Source of the DNA: Candidatus Saccharimonas aalborgensis
GTDB taxonomy: Bacteria; Patescibacteriota; Saccharimonadia; Saccharimonadales; Saccharimonadaceae
Length of the DNA: 32,000 nucleotides
Direction: 5' to 3'
NCBI RefSeq assembly: GCF_000392435.1
Contig: NC_021219.1
Location: 540,001 to 572,000, forward strand
Both the position numbers and the translations under genes were made by a program. Below the pieces are notes generated by a model. The model made no database searches. It was given only the letters and a program-made list of their open reading frames with translations, and had not been told where the DNA came from. Of this stretch, positions 5,975-27,609 are shown one piece after another. Position 1 is the stretch's first letter, and each line of letters begins with the position of its first letter.

Positions 5975-6062
5975 GGAGAGGTGACCGAGTGGTTGATGGT
6001 AACGGTCTTGAAAACCGTCGTGGGGCAACTCACCGCGAGTTCGAATCTCGCCCTCTCCGCCA
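5975..6062 (+). tRNA. tRNA-Ser (anticodon UGA), CCA encoded
   Basis: Acceptor GGAGAGG/CCTCTCC, 3-bp class II D stem, anticodon arm ACGGT-CTTGAAA-ACCGT, long variable arm, T arm GCGAG-TTCGAAT-CTCGC, then G-CCA. Confidence 0.92.
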
Positions 6063-6976: not shown

Positions 6977-7360
6977 TTACGAGCCGTAGATGGTAGAGTA
7001 GTTTCCGTTGGTACGATACATGCGTGCTCCAGCGATTTGGGCATACATATCGTATGGCTGTAGGTTATCAACGTTAAAGGACGCGATTGGACCACAAGAG
7101 ATGGCTGCCCGTATACCGGGCCATACCTCATCTGCTCTTCTTAATCGCACTTCAACACAATAGCCGTCGGTCTTTATATCCTGCACCTCGCCATAAACGC
7201 GGTGTCCAGGAATATCAAGTCGGAAGCCTATCCACGCCCTCCCCCAGGTTGTGTACTTCCACTGGTAGTCGACAGCGTGGGCCACATTAAATGGCATGCC
7301 GCTGAGTGAAACCATAACAGCAGCACAGATCGCCACTAGCACTCTTTTTATACTAGTCAT
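6977..7360 (-). CDS. Hypothetical secreted protein (127 aa, signal peptide, 2 Cys)
   Basis: Strong RBS AAGGAGGTGAT directly upstream of ATG 7360. Signal peptide MTSIKRVLVAICAAVMVSLSGMPFNVAHA. No family recognised. Confidence 0.6.
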   Translation of the reverse strand: MTSIKRVLVAICAAVMVSLSGMPFNVAHAVDYQWKYTTWGRAWIGFRLDIPGHRVYGEVQDIKTDGYCVEVRLRRADEVWPGIRAAISCGPIASFNVDNLQPYDMYAQIAGARMYRTNGNYSTIYGS

Positions 7361-7482
7361 ATCACCTCCTTATTATTGTGATATCTCTACTATATGTCGT
7401 TTGTTCTACAACAGCAAGGATACTTTTAAGTATATGATATCTTGTACTGACCTCTTAAATATGCTACTATATGCGAACGTAT

Positions 7483-7559
7483 GCACCCGTAGCTCAGCTG
7501 GATAGAGCGTTGGCTTGCGGAGCCAAAGGTCGCACGTTCGAATCGTACCGGGTGTACCA
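7483..7559 (+). tRNA. tRNA-Arg (anticodon GCG), CCA encoded
   Basis: Acceptor GCACCCG/CGGGTGT (G1-U72 wobble), D arm GCTC-AGCTGGATA-GAGC, perfect anticodon stem TTGGC/GCCAA with loop TTGCGGA, T arm GCACG-TTCGAAT-CGTAC (one C-A mismatch), then A-CCA. Confidence 0.8.
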
Positions 7560-7562
7560 TAG

Positions 7563-7590
7563 AAAAATCCCATGGCTTCATGGGGTTTTT
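7563..7590 (+). terminator. Rho-independent terminator after tRNA-Arg
   Basis: AAAAATCCCATG, loop GCTT, CATGGGGTTTTT. Confidence 0.7.
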
Positions 7591-7655
7591 CTATGGGTGC
7601 TGGCAGATTGCGAGGCGAATTGCAGGCTACTAGCATAAGTGATATCATCAAAGTG

Positions 7656-8381
7656 ATGAAAAATCTATTCTTGGTGCGAATTCGCTTATCTACCTATTTT
7701 ATCTTTATTTTTATCTCGATGACCGTTGTGTCGCTATTTTTACCGAAAGCAAAGTTTGATTCGGCAGCTCTCACCCTATTCTCCGTTAACTCGTTTTTGT
7801 ATGGGTTTTATATCGCGCCAATCCTTAGTGCTCAGAAAACTCGTATTGAGGAAATGCATAAGATAGTTCGCGCCGAAGCCAACGCGGTTTTTGCACTTAT
7901 GATTGCCGTAAAGCGTTTGCCAGATGGAGCGAGAGAACGGCTCGGTGTACTAGTAAGAGAGTATTTATCGTTGTGTATAAGACAACGAAAAGCTGCTGAG
8001 GGTGAGGAAAAATATGAAGAAATCATTAGCTATTGCATAGCCTATGGGGGTGAATCTCCCGAAGCGGTAGCTGATATCCTAGATAAGGTAGTCGCAAATC
8101 AAAAAAACCGTACGGATTTTTCCATGCAGATTGCGAATAAGGTATATTCCAATGAATGGATGGTGATGTTGGTACTATTTGGCGTTACTCTCTCGTTTAT
8201 ATTGCTGCTTGATACGGGCGAAAACGTCATTTTCCGTGTTCTTGCTGCCCTTGTGTCGACCGGACTTACGATGCTAGTTGTTATTCTTGTGAAGATGTCC
8301 ACCCTCACCCACAAAAAGGCGAAGCAGATTTGGGACCCGTACAAACGATTACTTGAGACAAACTTTTATCGTATTGACTAA
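7656..8381 (+). CDS. Hypothetical membrane protein (241 aa; 2 N-terminal and 2 C-terminal TM helices around a helical soluble region)
   Basis: Start set at ATG 7656; the track start at 7572 lies inside the tRNA terminator. TGATATCAT at 7640-7648 sits 7 nt upstream of the ATG. No family recognised with confidence. Confidence 0.6.
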   Translation: MKNLFLVRIRLSTYFIFIFISMTVVSLFLPKAKFDSAALTLFSVNSFLYGFYIAPILSAQKTRIEEMHKIVRAEANAVFALMIAVKRLPDGARERLGVLVREYLSLCIRQRKAAEGEEKYEEIISYCIAYGGESPEAVADILDKVVANQKNRTDFSMQIANKVYSNEWMVMLVLFGVTLSFILLLDTGENVIFRVLAALVSTGLTMLVVILVKMSTLTHKKAKQIWDPYKRLLETNFYRID

Positions 8382-8392
8382 GCACACATCAT

Positions 8393-8423
8393 AAAAAAAT
8401 GACCCAACGTAGGTCATTTTTTT
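8393..8423. terminator. Bidirectional terminator
   Basis: AAAAAAATGACC (8393-8404) pairs with GGTCATTTTTTT (8412-8423), between a plus-strand CDS and a minus-strand tRNA. Confidence 0.7.
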
Positions 8424-8424
8424 A

Positions 8425-8517
8425 TGGCGGAGGAGGGGAGATTCGAACTCCCGCTGCAGGTCTCCCCACACTAACGATTTAGCAAACCGTCCCCTTCAGC
8501 CACTTGGGTACTCCTCC
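8425..8517 (-). tRNA. tRNA-Ser (anticodon GCU), CCA encoded
   Basis: Minus-strand read: GGAGGAG acceptor, anticodon arm ACGGT-TTGCTAA-ATCGT, long variable arm, T arm GGGAG-TTCGAAT-CTCCC, then ..CTCCTCC-G-CCA. Confidence 0.9.
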
Positions 8518-8624
8518 GTATCGACCATGCTACTGTCGTAGACGATCGCTTCAGATTGTTAATTGAACCATAGTAGTATACCATACCAACACCTTAGCGT
8601 ATAGAGACATGCTATAGTTGGCTA

Positions 8625-10517: not shown

Positions 10518-10607
10518 TGGCGGAGAGGGGGGGATTCGAACCCCCGATACGTTTGCGCGCATACACGATTTCGAGTCGTGCGCCTTCAACCACTCGGCCA
10601 CCTCTCC
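10518..10607 (-). tRNA. tRNA-Ser (anticodon CGA), CCA encoded
   Basis: Minus-strand read: GGAGAGG acceptor, anticodon arm CACGA-CTCGAAA-TCGTG, long variable arm, T arm GGGGG-TTCGAAT-CCCCC, then CCTCTCC-G-CCA. Confidence 0.9.
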
Positions 10608-23561: not shown

Positions 23562-24421
23562 GATGCTTTTACCTTCTTTTTTGTCGCTGACTTGCGTGGC
23601 TTTCTTTTGCGTGTAGCCTTTTTGGGTGGGTCATCTTGCGTCGGTTCTGCTGGGACTATCTGCTCTTCACGAGCTTTGCGGTTTAGGGGAATAGAGACCG
23701 ATTCCTCATCGGCGAGTTGTACTTTGATCTTGATATCACTGGCAATTTTGCCATCCAACATCTTGATTACTCGGCTTGCATAGCTTGTGAGCGAGGGGTT
23801 GTGGGTCACCATGATAATTGTGTTTCCGCGCTTATGAAGGTCAGAGAGTTCTTCCATGATGACATGACTACTGCGGCTATCGAGATTGCCTGTTGGCTCG
23901 TCCGCCAAGATAATCGAAGGCTGGTTGACCAATGCCCGTGCAATAGCAACGCGCTGCATTTGGCCACCAGAGAGTTGCCAGGGCATGTAGTATTCGCGTT
24001 CACCAAGGTGAAAAGTTTTTAAGATTGCACTAGCAGCTTCGAGACGTTTTGTCCGTCCGATACCTTTATAAGTGAGGGGTAAGGCAACGTTTTCGAGTAC
24101 CGAGAGGCGGTTGATGAGATTGAAGCTTTGAAAGACAATTCCTATCTGCTGAGAACGGATGCGGGCGTGTTGTTTGCTCGAGAGGCTATCGACTGGCTTG
24201 CCGTCGAGCAGATAGTCACCCGCATCGGCACGGTCGAGCAGTCCGATAACGTTGAGAAGTGTTGTTTTACCACATCCGCTGGGTCCCATAATGGCGATAA
24301 ACTCACCTCTGTCGATTCGCAGATTGACGGTATCGAGTGCATTATGCTCAGCGTCGCCAATCCCATAACGCTTTGTTAGCGCCCTGAGTTCTATGACCGG
24401 CGTGGTGGAATTTTTTGGCAT
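23558..24421 (-). CDS. ABC transporter ATP-binding protein, MacB/LolD type, with a ~60-aa Lys/Arg-rich C-terminal tail
   Basis: Walker [10 protein letters not shown], signature [15 protein letters not shown], Walker [13 protein letters not shown]. Tail ..[23 protein letters not shown]. Start set at ATG 24421 ([12 protein letters not shown]), 9 nt after a TATACT box. Confidence 0.85.
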
Positions 24422-24506
24422 CTGGAGCTTAGTATACGGGCGGGCAAAAAGAGAATGCAAGCGGAATGGCGAGGTTAAAAATACAACTGCTATACTGGGA
24501 TGGTAT

Positions 24507-24533
24507 GGAGAGGTGACCGAGTGGTTGAAGGTG
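24507..24533 (+). pseudogene. Orphan 5' fragment of tRNA-Ser (27 nt, acceptor 5' strand plus D arm)
   Basis: GGAGAGGTGACCGAGTGGTTGAAGGTG is identical to 24677-24703. No anticodon arm, T arm or 3' acceptor strand follows. Preceded by TGCTATACT (24488-24496). Confidence 0.75.
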
Positions 24534-24676
24534 AGAGCTGCCAGTCGGCAGCTCGCAAGATGATGTCACAGATGGGCTATGCACATCTGCCTGACTCATG
24601 GGGTCGCGGAACGTGACCACGCCTGGAGGACGTGCCCTGATGGCGTGCGGACTCAGATGGTACAATCGATATATAC

Positions 24677-24768
24677 GGAGAGGTGACCGAGTGGTTGAAG
24701 GTGCACGCCTGGAAAGTGTGTGTGCGGGGCAACCCGCACCGTGAGTTCGAATCTCATCCTCTCCGCCA
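24677..24768 (+). tRNA. tRNA-Ser (anticodon GGA), CCA encoded
   Basis: Acceptor GGAGAGG/CCTCTCC, anticodon arm CACGC-CTGGAAA-GTGTG, long variable arm (GCGGGGCAACCCGCACC), T arm GTGAG-TTCGAAT-CTCAT, then G-CCA. Confidence 0.9.
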
Positions 24769-24888
24769 AGACTATAGCGATGGACTAAGCAGCAGTCGTT
24801 ATAAAATAAATGATCTTAAGATATGACAGTGCCCCGTTCCCTCTCGCGAGGAAACGGGGCTACCATCATCAGCGTGTTGCGCCGGTCG

Positions 24889-25539
24889 TCAGTAGACGAC
24901 GACGCGCGTACCGATCGGCGACGAGTCGAACACCCGCTTGGCGCCTGTCATGTCGCGCAGGTTCACGCAGCCGTGGCTGCCTCCAGACGGACTGCTCCAA
25001 CCCCACTCGGCGAACTCGTCGCTGAAGTGGATGGCGTAGCCGCCGATGAAGAACAATGAGAAGGGCATGCGCGCGCCATATTTGTAACTGTAAGCCGCGG
25101 GGTTTCGGTAGTAGACCCGGAAGACACCCCGCGGGGTGTTCATGCCGGGGCGACCGAAGCGCGCGTCGAGCGTGCCGGTGACTTGACCGTTCACGACGAC
25201 GAACAGCTTGTTGGCACCGGTGCTCGCGCAGAGCGCGATGCCCTTGATCTGGCAACGCGGGTCGATGCCGCTGATCGCGGGGTAGGCCGGCGCGGCCGGC
25301 TTGACGACCTTCTTCTTCGTCTTCTTCTTGGCTTTCTTTTTCGCCTTCTTGACCTTCTTCTTGGCGGTCGTCTTGGTCGCCACCACGCTGTGGTAGGCGG
25401 TGGTGACACCGGACGAGACCGGCGCGGCTGTGGCCGAGCTGGCGCCGACGAAGCCACCGAGCAAGCTGACGACGAGCGAGAGGATGGCGATGAAGGCGAG
25501 ACGGATACCGAACTTGTTTTTGCTGATGATGGGGTGCAT
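24889..25539 (-). CDS. L,D-transpeptidase (YkuD) domain protein with signal peptide and Lys-rich linker (216 aa)
   Basis: Catalytic motif ..YAIHFSDEFAEWGWSSPSGGSHGCVNLRD. N-terminal signal/anchor IRLAFIAILSLVVSLLGGFVGASSATA. Linker TAKKKVKKAKKKAKKKTKKKVVKP. ATG at 25539 is preceded by AAGGAGG (8-nt spacer); the track begins at GTG 25548. Terminator-like hairpin at 24831-24860. Confidence 0.8.
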   Translation of the reverse strand: MHPIISKNKFGIRLAFIAILSLVVSLLGGFVGASSATAAPVSSGVTTAYHSVVATKTTAKKKVKKAKKKAKKKTKKKVVKPAAPAYPAISGIDPRCQIKGIALCASTGANKLFVVVNGQVTGTLDARFGRPGMNTPRGVFRVYYRNPAAYSYKYGARMPFSLFFIGGYAIHFSDEFAEWGWSSPSGGSHGCVNLRDMTGAKRVFDSSPIGTRVVVY

Positions 25540-25639
25540 CCCCACCACCTCCTTTTCTTTGGAGTCGGGGACTGACTGTGCTACTTTAACATGTTATAGA
25601 TAGTTTGTCTATATAAGAAGCCGAACTCTATAAAAAGCG

Positions 25640-25669
25640 AATGGCCCACCCCGTGAGGGATGGGCCATT
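25640..25669 (-). terminator. Rho-independent terminator of the 199-aa island gene
   Basis: AATGGCCCA (25640-25648) pairs with TGGGCCATT (25661-25669). On the minus strand it is followed by CGCTTTTTA. Confidence 0.65.
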
Positions 25670-25683
25670 GCCTGGATGGGGTA

Positions 25684-26283
25684 CTAGCGGCGCGTGAGGG
25701 TTGCGCCCTCGGGCAGTGCTTCGAACTGGGCGTATTCGGGTCGCGGCGTGTTGTCGCCACCAGCCCAGTACTGCCCCTCGCCACGCTTGGCGATCTGGGC
25801 CGAGCAGTGACGTGCAATGCCGTCCGTGAGCTTGTCGAGGAATTCGACCATGACCTTGCGGTCGTTGGCCTGACTCAGCCCGCTGCCGGCACCGGGGAAG
25901 CCGCGGTGAACCACGGCGTGCCCGAAGCGGAACTGCCCGCTGCCGAGTCGCCAGGGCTCCTCGGCGAAGACGGTCTCCATGGACACGCCGGGGTTCAACT
26001 GCATCCAGTCCAGTTTGGCCGCGGCGTTGACCAGGCGACGACGCGGTCCATCACCGAGGTGGAACTCCAGTAACACGTCGTCGAGGTAGGGCCGGCCGTG
26101 CTCGCGTACGGGGCTACAGACCAGGCCGCTGTAGGTGGCGCCAGGTTGTTCCTCGCCCTGCTCGATGAGCCAGGCGAGGTACCAGTGCACGTTGAACATG
26201 GCTCGCCTGACGGCCTGATCAAACACGTCGATGTCGCAATCGAAGGGAAGGGCGTCGACGTGCAGACGGAAGCTGTCGGTCAT
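25684..26283 (-). CDS. Hypothetical cytoplasmic protein (199 aa), high-GC, no family recognised
   Basis: Start set at ATG 26283 (MTDSFRLHVDALPF) with a GAGGAAA RBS; the track start at 26325 adds 14 aa. No signal peptide or TM segment. GC3-rich codon usage like the neighbouring ldt gene. Confidence 0.6.
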   Translation of the reverse strand: MTDSFRLHVDALPFDCDIDVFDQAVRRAMFNVHWYLAWLIEQGEEQPGATYSGLVCSPVREHGRPYLDDVLLEFHLGDGPRRRLVNAAAKLDWMQLNPGVSMETVFAEEPWRLGSGQFRFGHAVVHRGFPGAGSGLSQANDRKVMVEFLDKLTDGIARHCSAQIAKRGEGQYWAGGDNTPRPEYAQFEALPEGATLTRR

Positions 26284-26400
26284 GATTTCCTCACAGGATC
26301 GAGCTCTGAACCCCCATGGTTCCAAGCAATATGCTAATTATAGCATAAAAACTATAAAACAACAATACCCTAAGGAGTACAAAGCAAAACAGCCCGCTCG

Positions 26401-27609
26401 TTATTGACGGGCAAAAATCTCTTTGAGGCTGAGTTTGCGGCTGTATTCGAGTGCGCCAAAGCGGAAAATACGAACGGCAATGCTCATTACAATAAAGGTG
26501 GTGATGCTCAGAATGACGATAGACAGCCCAATTTCCCATCCCTGGAGATTGCCCAGAGCATTTCGGAGGAGGAGGGGAATAGGAGCGGTGAAAGGAAATA
26601 GTGTGAGAAATACAACGAACGAGCTGGTAGGAGCGGATACAAACAACGAAGCGGCGTAGAGGGGCCCAAAGATGAGCATCATGACAATGCCAAAGAACCC
26701 GCCTGCTTCTTTGGCTGTTGGCACAGCGGCGCCAATGGCGACAAGGAGTCCAGTAAACAGCAAGAAGCTAAGGATGAAGAACAGCGCTCCGAGCAAGATG
26801 CGGGTTGGGTCAACTGGCAGGGCAGTGAGGTCGATTGAAGGGAGTGAGAGTTTTTCGCGGAAGCCAAAATAGCCGATGAGCGCGGGGACGACAATAACGA
26901 CCGCCTGGATTACTGCCAGTATGACAAGCGAAATGATCTTTCCAATGATGAGCGTGCGAGCCTCAATGGTGGTGAGAATCATCTCGATAACGCGATTTTC
27001 TTTTTCTTCGGTGGTGCTTGTCAGCATTTGGTTGCCAAAGAATGCGATAAGGAGATAAAACAGCACAAGAAAGACTCCTGGCAAGATCATCTGCTTCACT
27101 GCATCGTAGGGGGCACCATTACGGTAGATAATAGTGTTGTATGTCGTTGTATCTTGCACAACGGATTTGACTTCTGGTGAGACAGTGGCATTTGCTGACA
27201 TGCTGAGCAAGTTCTTGGCAACCCCCTCGTAGCGCCCGTTATCAAAGAGGCTGACGTCTTTTCCATAGACTTCAACGGGAGTCTTATCGATGTTCTCGGG
27301 GTAGTAGAAATAGGCATCTGTCTTGCCAGCCTTGACATCCTCGATGCCTTGGTTTTTGTCAGTTACCTGCTTGATATTGAGGCCACTCGCAATAGTAGGA
27401 TTGATAAGTTTCGAACGGTCGGTCATCTCAATAGTGAAAGACTGCTTCTCGAGTTGTTTGGTGGCATCGTCCGTCGTCTTGTTTGAAAAAAAGATGATAC
27501 CAAACAGTGCTACAAGCATAATGGGGAACCCAAGCGCCATAATCCAAAATGATTTTTTCTTGAGCGTGCGGAGTATTTCAAATTTGATGACAGTCGTAAG
27601 ATTATGCAT
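26401..27609 (-). CDS. ABC-2 type transporter permease (NatB-like, 402 aa)
   Basis: N-terminal TM helix, a large external domain, and 5 C-terminal TM helices. Start set at ATG 27609, which overlaps the ATPase stop by 8 nt (ATGCATAA). Confidence 0.75.
   Translation of the reverse strand: MHNLTTVIKFEILRTLKKKSFWIMALGFPIMLVALFGIIFFSNKTTDDATKQLEKQSFTIEMTDRSKLINPTIASGLNIKQVTDKNQGIEDVKAGKTDAYFYYPENIDKTPVEVYGKDVSLFDNGRYEGVAKNLLSMSANATVSPEVKSVVQDTTTYNTIIYRNGAPYDAVKQMILPGVFLVLFYLLIAFFGNQMLTSTTEEKENRVIEMILTTIEARTLIIGKIISLVILAVIQAVVIVVPALIGYFGFREKLSLPSIDLTALPVDPTRILLGALFFILSFLLFTGLLVAIGAAVPTAKEAGGFFGIVMMLIFGPLYAASLFVSAPTSSFVVFLTLFPFTAPIPLLLRNALGNLQGWEIGLSIVILSITTFIVMSIAVRIFRFGALEYSRKLSLKEIFARQ

Follow-up and report, generated by a model that had tools for sequence, protein, structure and literature searches.

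A GC-rich stretch beside tRNA-Ser(GGA) of Candidatus Saccharimonas aalborgensis carries two autonomous genes that occur independently among close strains

The described systems closest to the locus examined here are of three kinds: genomic islands that adjoin tRNA genes; actinobacterial enzymes that join a PG_binding_1 domain to a YkuD domain (PF01471 + PF03734), as in Aestuariimicrobium ganziense, the Intrasporangiaceae, and Nocardioides; and the HbpS-like/GlcG/PduO-C/EfgA/NahX family (PF03928, formerly DUF336). Here we analyzed a 32-kb stretch of the genome of the wastewater epibiont Candidatus Saccharimonas aalborgensis (NC_021219.1, positions 540,001 to 572,000; hereafter the window, to which coordinates without another label refer), in which a high-GC segment (24831-26330) beside tRNA-Ser(GGA) carries two co-oriented genes on the minus strand. 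One encodes a YkuD-type L,D-transpeptidase (Ldt, 24889-25539) and the other a 199-residue protein (open reading frame 2 [ORF2], 25684-26283). A preliminary description had taken the segment for one two-gene island, probably transferred from a high-GC, actinobacterial-like donor. We show that Ldt and ORF2 are instead two autonomous transcription units, each present or absent independently of the other.

Like tRNA-adjacent genomic islands, the locus has variable DNA that abuts the 3′ end of a tRNA gene and differs among close strains, and two of its cassettes have an anomalous composition. Unlike such islands, it has no integrase, mobility genes, or repeat of the tRNA 3′ end; its cassettes are single genes of 0.7 to 0.9 kb, and the sole repeat of the tRNA copies the 5′ part and lies on the opposite side of the tRNA. 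Ldt resembles the actinobacterial PG_binding_1-YkuD enzymes in its catalytic domain (35 to 54% identical), in the motif H-x16-SHGCVN, in two conserved upstream Cys residues, and in its high G+C at third codon positions (GC3). It differs from them in a signal-like segment and a poly-Lys linker that only Saccharibacteria copies share, and in residing in a 0.49-GC, roughly 1-Mb epibiont genome. The predicted fold of ORF2 weakly resembles that of the PF03928 family, with a similar order and spacing of conserved positions, but ORF2 exceeds the family in length by about 60 residues, has additional elements at both termini, and does not match the PF03928 profile.

Two autonomous genes in a variable interval

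G+C content was 0.497 over the whole window and about 0.49 outside the flagged segment, versus 0.625 across 24831-26330, with peaks of 0.65 to 0.68 in 300-nucleotide (nt) windows. The excess is restricted to the two coding sequences. Compared with the 33 other ORFs of the window (GC3 = 0.491 ± 0.047, maximum 0.576), both Ldt (GC 0.63, GC3 0.877, z = 8.2) and ORF2 (GC 0.658, GC3 0.83, z = 7.2) are far outliers, while the intergenic stretches around them have host-like GC (0.42, 0.49, and 0.50). The jump in GC over two genes with G/C-ending codons was therefore as first described, as were the AT-richer, recipient-like DNA between the genes and the long spurious ORFs clustered in all frames across the segment.

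Strains 92 to 97% identical to the window carried three haplotypes. The window and at least 10 assemblies have ORF2 together with Ldt. In the second haplotype (L006/L007, 94 to 97% identical), Ldt is present, and BLAST and alignments located a segment with most of ORF2 and its promoter (about 25714-26399) that is absent, with about 85 bp left in its place. The distal part of this remainder is a decayed, stop-containing ORF2 3′ end ('...RPEGVGITS*' versus '...LPEGATLTRR*') that is about 40% diverged, yet borders 100%-identical DNA. In the third haplotype (L110), ORF2 is present (96% nucleotide identity), and in place of the segment with Ldt, its promoter, and its hairpin (24771-25633) there are about 734 bp of DNA of normal GC (L110 806-1539) that contain an unrelated ORF of 227 aa, for which no Pfam or PADLOC match was found. 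BLAST and the sequence and ORFs of L110 place the borders of this replacement precisely at the ORF2 terminator and the 3′ end of the tRNA (it stops 2 nt past the tRNA); homology to the window resumes at 24770 on the tRNA side and starts only at 26314 on the upstream side of ORF2. When the related loci L001 (144-aa gene, Ldt, and DAGK) and L014 (ORF2 homolog only) are counted, at least five cassettes occur in the interval between ABC2 and tRNA-Ser. The proposed comparison with related genomes thus found the two genes apart in near-identical strains, Ldt without an intact ORF2 in L006/L007 and ORF2 without Ldt in L110, and the description of a single two-gene island does not hold.

Expression signals flank each gene. 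ORF2 ends in an intrinsic terminator (25640-25669, minus strand; terminator scan; 13-bp stem followed by a T-run; fold of −29.3 kcal/mol, z = −3.8) that is kept both in the strains without ORF2 and in the strain without Ldt. A long hairpin 3′ of Ldt is a probable terminator (24823-24869, minus strand; RNA fold of −42.2 kcal/mol, z = −6.5 versus shuffles); in it the stem and the T-rich tract are not contiguous, and a strict terminator scan did not call it. The earlier claim of one terminator per gene agrees with these two strong hairpins. Upstream of Ldt (25548-25611, minus strand), a promoter scan and reading of the sequence gave a sigma-70-like promoter match (25583-25611) and a Shine-Dalgarno sequence (AAGGAGG, 25548-25554) ahead of an ATG at 25539; we take this codon as the corrected start (216 aa) in place of the GTG at 25548, and the same length is called in related assemblies. 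The intergenic region with these signals is 98.6 to 100% conserved among strains. Upstream of ORF2, an AT-rich region (26284-26400, minus strand; GC 0.42) was read as containing a Shine-Dalgarno sequence (GAGGAA) and a TATAAT-like hexamer (26337-26342). A two-gene operon was rejected, given the terminator and promoter between the genes and their separate occurrence. A defense-island reading was also rejected, with no match in PADLOC.

The fixed boundary of the variable interval is the 3′ end of tRNA-Ser(GGA) (24677-24768, plus strand; ARAGORN; Rfam tRNA, 53.5 bits), which lies beside the two genes as originally noted. Also in agreement with the preliminary description, there was no integrase among the genes within 4 kb on either side (RNR, ABC ATPase, ABC2 permease, ABC ATPase, MacB/FtsX, and PGI), and within 24300-26500 the far border showed no direct copy of the tRNA 3′ end. 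A 30-nt direct repeat of the 5′ part of the tRNA (24504-24533, plus strand; partner 24674-24703; repeat search family D2, 97% identity) bounds a 170-bp segment on the side away from Ldt and ORF2. This segment is absent in L001 and present in L110, contains no pseudo-tRNA or known RNA by Rfam and ARAGORN, and may have been left by an earlier integration or duplication event at this tRNA. Between the ABC-transporter gene and the tRNA 3′ end lies a hot spot for cassettes.

The explanation that we consider probable is that two separate single-gene cassettes, an old actinobacterial-type import (Ldt) and a member of a rare moderate-GC family (ORF2), turn over independently at tRNA-Ser(GGA). Each cassette, with its own promoter and terminator, would sit in a recombination hot spot between the ABC2-type transporter gene and the tRNA 3′ end, and would be gained, lost, or replaced among strains independently of the other. 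Since there is no integrase, the cassettes probably move by recombination, homologous or illegitimate, with the conserved flanks as anchors.

Three further observations concern this locus. The L110 contig opens with the start of a divergent gene, about 30 bp from ORF2 on its upstream side (L110 1-125; MKKASKLTDAERSEIDILHGKGYSAH...), which may resemble the N terminus of an IS30-type transposase. Another assembly, L103, is 100% identical to the window over ORF2, Ldt, the tRNA, and the ABC ATPase and 95.5 to 96.9% identical in the upstream RNR, ABC ATPase, and ABC2; either the strain is recombinant or the metagenome assembly is chimeric, and in both cases the breakpoint lies near the ABC2/ORF2 border. 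Serine tRNAs make up four of the five tRNA genes of the window (5975-6062, 8425-8517, 10518-10607, and 24677-24768; anticodons TGA, GCT, CGA, and GGA).

The 199-residue protein and its G/C-ending codons

ORF2 (25684-26283, minus strand) encodes a cytoplasmic protein of a rare, unannotated family, as judged from family searches and its predicted fold. The protein is identical to L336_0568 of Candidatus Saccharimonas aalborgensis, and its ratio of nonsynonymous to synonymous substitutions (dN/dS) between close strains (0.28) indicates purifying selection. A word-indexed search of a 5.8-billion-cluster collection recovered only ORF2 itself. Exhaustive HMMER searching of 1.84 billion representatives gave 10 proteins at E ≤ 0.001, two of which (P0047 and P0051) are repeat proteins and were judged spurious, and a profile search reached 22 clusters, among which the S. 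aalborgensis protein bore the sole organism name. The family, of about 25 clusters in all, lies mostly on moderate-GC contigs, two of them named Saccharibacteria. No actinobacterial relative was found in the 1.84 billion representatives or the 5.8-billion-cluster collection. A scan of species genomes (one genome per species, 185,579 species) found no match to ORF2, but the source organism went unmatched too, being apparently absent from that collection or masked in this stretch. A tblastn search of phage and plasmid records with ORF2 returned nothing, as did scans of viral contigs for ORF2 and for Ldt.

The two closest homologs lie on contigs of 0.50 to 0.53 GC, one of them confirmed as Saccharibacteria and syntenic with the window. 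On that contig (L014), P0046 (42% identical to ORF2) follows the order RNR, ABC ATPase, ABC2 permease, ORF2 homolog, and tRNA-Ser, which is the slot of the window, and the RNR, annotated Candidatus Saccharibacteria, is 87% identical to that of the window. The other, P0045 (46% identical), adjoins a DAGK gene like that beside Ldt in L001. More remote members (21 to 26% identity in the family alignment) have housekeeping contexts of 0.45 to 0.56 GC. Linkage to serine tRNA genes recurs in three lineages: besides the tRNA-Ser slot of the window, tandem paralogs in L010, a 0.45-GC contig (7187-7810 and 8001-8621; GC3 of 0.66 and 0.73; region 6990-8621), lie directly downstream of tRNA-Ser(CGA), and the homolog in L014/L015 is 250 bp from tRNA-Ser(CGA). 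BLAST of L009, L010, and L096 to L099 against the window proteins found no shared housekeeping genes. A shared actinobacterial origin is thus not upheld for ORF2, whose closest homologs are found in Patescibacteria at comparable GC.

Two side observations were made on these contigs. The clade-B homologs (L096 5209-5886, L097 685-1374, and L098 5283-5954) lie within about 1.2 kb of a gene for an SRAP protein (PF02586, abasic-site processing), an adjacency that could reflect conserved synteny or a functional link. In L014 (5269-5877) and L015 (27-635), a weak match to an IS200/IS605-type Y1 transposase (PF01797) lies just upstream of the ABC transporter pair.

The preliminary description could not assign the 199-residue protein, and we found no Pfam or NCBIfam match either; PADLOC gave none. 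A single-sequence AlphaFold model (predicted local distance difference test [pLDDT] of 41) was discarded, and an AlphaFold2 model from 22 sequences reached a pLDDT of 89.8. With this model, the proposed structural comparison by Foldseek gave a resemblance to the DUF336/HbpS/GlcG fold, to which four of the top six PDB matches belong (2a2l, 5cx7, 9jth, and 4nkp). At the junction of a β-hairpin and the C-terminal helix, the ORF2 motif G(A/G)GSGLSxxxD (G-x-SGLS-x2-QD) aligns with GAIGVSG-x4-D. Several results speak against the assignment: the Foldseek matches were weak (E = 0.02 to 0.35; template-modeling [TM] scores of 0.32 to 0.39 normalized to the query and 0.43 to 0.50 normalized to the target), hhalign against an HbpS-like alignment covered 28 to 30 columns (E = 0.005 to 0.011, probability of 4 to 7%), and no Pfam family was found at E ≤ 10 for ORF2 or any of the 22 members. 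Sequence-profile searches of the PDB with two ORF2 family alignments returned noise only. We therefore treat the predicted model as pointing to a divergent HbpS/GlcG-like small-ligand binder, a lead and not a call of membership, and ORF2 may act in the cytoplasm as an HbpS/GlcG-type sensor or ligand-binding protein.

The codon bias of ORF2 persists across its family. At four-fold degenerate sites, the ORF2 genes of the window, L011, and L014 showed identities of 0.52, 0.40, and 0.36, versus 0.47, 0.39, and 0.42 expected, so that these sites are saturated, yet their G+C remains at 0.81 to 0.91. Within each of the eight moderate-GC contexts examined, the family gene has the highest or second-highest GC3 (offset of +0.15 to +0.29), and this value tracks the GC of the host (0.63 to 0.73 in 0.45-GC and 0.81 to 0.89 in 0.50- to 0.56-GC genomes). 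Because the bias survives complete synonymous saturation, it is not just the unameliorated signature of a donor. Between close strains, synonymous differences in ORF2 and Ldt were 2- to 2.5-fold below those of the flanks (Fisher P = 0.004 and 0.001), which points to synonymous-site constraint, cassette exchange among strains, or both. The GC signal can be read in two ways. Constraint or biased conversion may favor G/C-ending codons in Ldt and ORF2, or the copies may coalesce more recently, through exchange of cassettes or renewed import from a high-GC pool not yet sampled.

Bacterial accessory genes usually lean toward AT, and GC3-rich accessory genes would show the opposite bias. We tentatively raise the possibility that the ORF2 family, and perhaps other GC3-rich orphans, form an accessory class whose G/C-ending codons are actively maintained against mutational equilibrium; in favor are the saturated four-fold sites with a G+C of 0.81 to 0.91 and the reduced synonymous divergence. 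Selection on synonymous sites could be the cause, as could GC-biased gene conversion or ongoing exchange of cassettes at hot spots beside tRNA-Ser. As a separate observation, other small ORFs (80 to 170 aa) on related contigs are also GC3-rich (0.63 to 0.84) relative to their neighbors (L010 10085-10597; L098 4205-4675 and 9172-9603; L097 3762-4130 and 5005-5505; L009 7567-7809; L001 136-570). Pfam, NCBIfam, and PADLOC gave nothing for them, and these genomes may generally contain GC-rich orphans.

A rival account of ORF2, which we regard as rather doubtful though the best of those that compete with independent turnover of two resident cassettes, is that family members are repeatedly re-imported at tRNA-Ser hot spots from an unsampled high-GC reservoir (an L099-like genome or a mobile element), such that the copy in each lineage is young and its GC3 is that of the donor. 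Allele replacement would fit the diverged ORF2 remnant beside identical DNA in L006/L007, and the recurrent tRNA-Ser linkage, the 42% identity of ORF2 between genomes with 87%-identical RNR, and a synonymous divergence below that of the flanks are likewise in its favor. So is family clade C, which includes a gene in the 0.64-GC, non-CPR-like (candidate phyla radiation) context of L099; this gene, however, is GC-poorer than its neighbors. Members from high-GC contexts are, moreover, only about 21 to 31% identical to those of moderate-GC genomes, phages, plasmids, and viral contigs gave no match, and the tracking of host GC by family GC3 is what long residence would produce.

The L,D-transpeptidase and its actinobacterial relatives

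Ldt (216 aa; 24889-25539, minus strand) was identified by PF03734, motif alignment, and PDB family matches. The PF03734 match (residues 107-218 when the ORF is translated from the GTG at 25548, giving 219 aa) scored 55.6 bits against a gathering cutoff of 23.4, and the PDB matches 5bmq and 4lpq belong to the ErfK/YbiS family. YkuD enzymes are defined by the motif H-x(14-17)-[ST]-H-G-C-h-N, with a nucleophilic Cys. Ldt contains H174-x16-S191-H-G-C194-V-N, invariant in 12 aligned homologs, and the two upstream Cys residues are also conserved in the homolog alignment. These sequence features mark Ldt as a true YkuD enzyme whose active-site motif is intact, and the SHGCVN motif and poly-Lys linker reported at the outset are borne out. 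A dN/dS of 0.08 between close strains indicates purifying selection.

The N terminus, read by eye, resembles a Sec signal, with a basic n-region, a hydrophobic stretch (LAFIAILSLVVSLLGGFVG), and then ASSATA|AP. Short-period repeats (25297-25376, minus strand; repeat search, family D1) encode the poly-Lys linker KKKVKKAKKKAKKKTKKKVVK. Linkers of this type (KKKVKKAKKKAKKKTKKK, about 20 residues) also occur in the Saccharibacteria homologs P0003 and P0004, and the linker and signal-like N terminus stand where most actinobacterial homologs have PG_binding_1. In the Ldt of UBA669 (L016), masked bases (read as X) lie inside the poly-Lys region. We suggest that Ldt is exported via the Sec-type signal, that the poly-Lys tract would hold it on anionic wall polymers and so functionally replace PG_binding_1, and that it would form 3-3 cross-links or attach substrates in the epibiont's own Gram-positive-type wall; it might also act on the host wall.

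The relatives of Ldt are actinobacterial in type. In the species-genome scan, made for Ldt with peptide patterns derived from the query alignment, the best 80 of at least 595 relatives comprised one Saccharibacteria metagenome-assembled genome (UBA669, 77% identical) and 79 loci at 30 to 46% identity, all labeled Actinomycetota or with an actinobacterial genus or family (among them Nocardioides, Propionibacteriaceae, Kribbella, Streptomyces, Jiangella, and Lapillicoccus) except one "uncultured bacterium." These 79 loci have a median GC of 0.70 (range 0.62 to 0.75) and a median gene GC3 of 0.96. In the 5.8-billion-cluster collection, the named relatives beyond a few close copies are Intrasporangiaceae and Aestuariimicrobium only. 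Saccharibacteria copies were monophyletic in 100 of 100 bootstraps of the Ldt tree, next to L002 (a 0.69-GC contig group, 54% identity) and Aestuariimicrobium. Actinobacterial-type ancestry of Ldt is therefore supported by its sequence relatives. The originally proposed high-GC actinobacterial donor fits Ldt and is not supported for ORF2; in the same way, the suggested homology and phylogeny test gave actinobacterial nearest relatives for Ldt, without demonstrating nesting, and no actinobacterial match for ORF2. A literature search found no paper reporting transfer of this Ldt.

Synteny dates the Ldt cassette. L001, in which a neighboring gene is annotated Candidatus Saccharibacteria (1.01-Mb genome), and L016 share with the window the genes ABC2, Ldt, tRNA-Ser(GGA), and ABC ATPase in the order ABC2, 144-aa gene, Ldt, DAGK, tRNA-Ser(GGA), ABC ATPase. 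Flanking genes compared with L001 are saturated at four-fold sites (observed identities of 0.31 and 0.29 versus 0.27 and 0.29 expected from composition), whereas Ldt is less so (0.57 versus 0.41). As Ldt is syntenic and GC3-rich (0.84) in a lineage whose flanks are saturated, the transfer is old, and its GC3 of 0.84 to 0.88, versus about 0.96 in donor-type genes, fits an old import that has been partly ameliorated. Ldt would thus have been gained from a high-GC donor by an ancestor shared with the UBA669/IPM09 Saccharibacteria lineage, its nearest relatives being Actinomycetota, and the peptidoglycan (PG)-binding domain would later have been swapped for the signal sequence and poly-Lys tether.

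A number of points weigh against this account of two cassettes of different origin. The Ldt tree is a neighbor-joining tree of 121 columns without an outgroup, the node uniting Saccharibacteria Ldt with L002 has 32% support, so that nesting within the Actinomycetota is not formally demonstrated, and the nearest homolog outside Saccharibacteria is 54% identical, with no closer donor found. Only the best 80 of the Ldt relatives were assessed. Polarized single-nucleotide polymorphisms among strains in Ldt (seven GC>AT, three AT>GC) are too few to separate amelioration from equilibrium, and the GC3 baseline was drawn from 32 kb of the S. aalborgensis genome only. For ORF2, the taxonomy of the contexts L009 and L096 to L098 was inferred from gene content only, and the L099 context makes a high-GC reservoir possible.

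Transfer of a single 1.5-kb two-gene block from an actinobacterial host at tRNA-Ser, recent enough that only the expression signals have since adapted, is improbable. The sharp GC3 jump, the adjacency and shared orientation of the genes, the actinobacterial relatives of Ldt, and a locus abutting a tRNA 3′ end are all compatible with it, and Saccharimonadales of activated sludge co-occur with Actinobacteriota (PMC12592800). However, the three haplotypes separate the genes in near-identical strains; Ldt is older than the split from the L001 lineage, and its best outside match of 54% also disagrees with a recent transfer; ORF2 has no actinobacterial homolog in the collections searched, its closest kin lying on Saccharibacteria-like contigs, one in the same slot; and all intergenic DNA is host-like in GC, with neither an integrase nor an att-type (attachment-site) 3′ repeat.

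It is highly unlikely that the two genes form a functional module in which a transpeptidase and a partner or regulator in the cytoplasm are inherited and used together. The reference strain and at least 10 assemblies do have them side by side in one orientation, but a terminator and promoter separate them, close strains as well as other lineages carry one gene without its neighbor, and nothing indicates that the two proteins cooperate. The anomalous composition might suggest a chimeric assembly or contaminating actinobacterial reads. This can be set aside, since ORF2 and Ldt have the same arrangement in many short- and long-read assemblies made independently from different samples, among them the closed genomes CP065015.1 and CP064959.1, and the junctions run on into host-like intergenic DNA.

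Implications for gene exchange in Saccharibacteria

The locus shows how compositional evidence can mislead: what a sharp GC3 jump had suggested to be a recent island turns out on comparison to be two unrelated cassettes, one of which remained GC-rich while its synonymous sites turned over completely. With three haplotypes in one species population, the locus also makes the turnover of cassettes tractable as a natural experiment, in a roughly 1-Mb genome that has no obvious machinery of mobile elements. Comparative work on the cultivated Saccharibacterium TM7x reported no strong sign that genes had passed to it from its Actinomyces host (PMC7427843), and an actinobacterial-type Ldt fixed in an environmental Saccharimonas lineage is therefore a useful counterexample. 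The exchange of a PG-binding domain for a poly-Lys tract offers a concrete hypothesis of how a borrowed wall enzyme could be adapted to the epibiont envelope.

The persistent GC3 richness, together with low synonymous divergence, is the most interesting lead at the locus. If the persistence in ORF2 reflects selection or biased conversion, compositional detection of horizontal gene transfer in Patescibacteria would need recalibration. If G/C-ending codons are indeed maintained, they might be the mark of a pool of genes associated with living on hosts of high GC.

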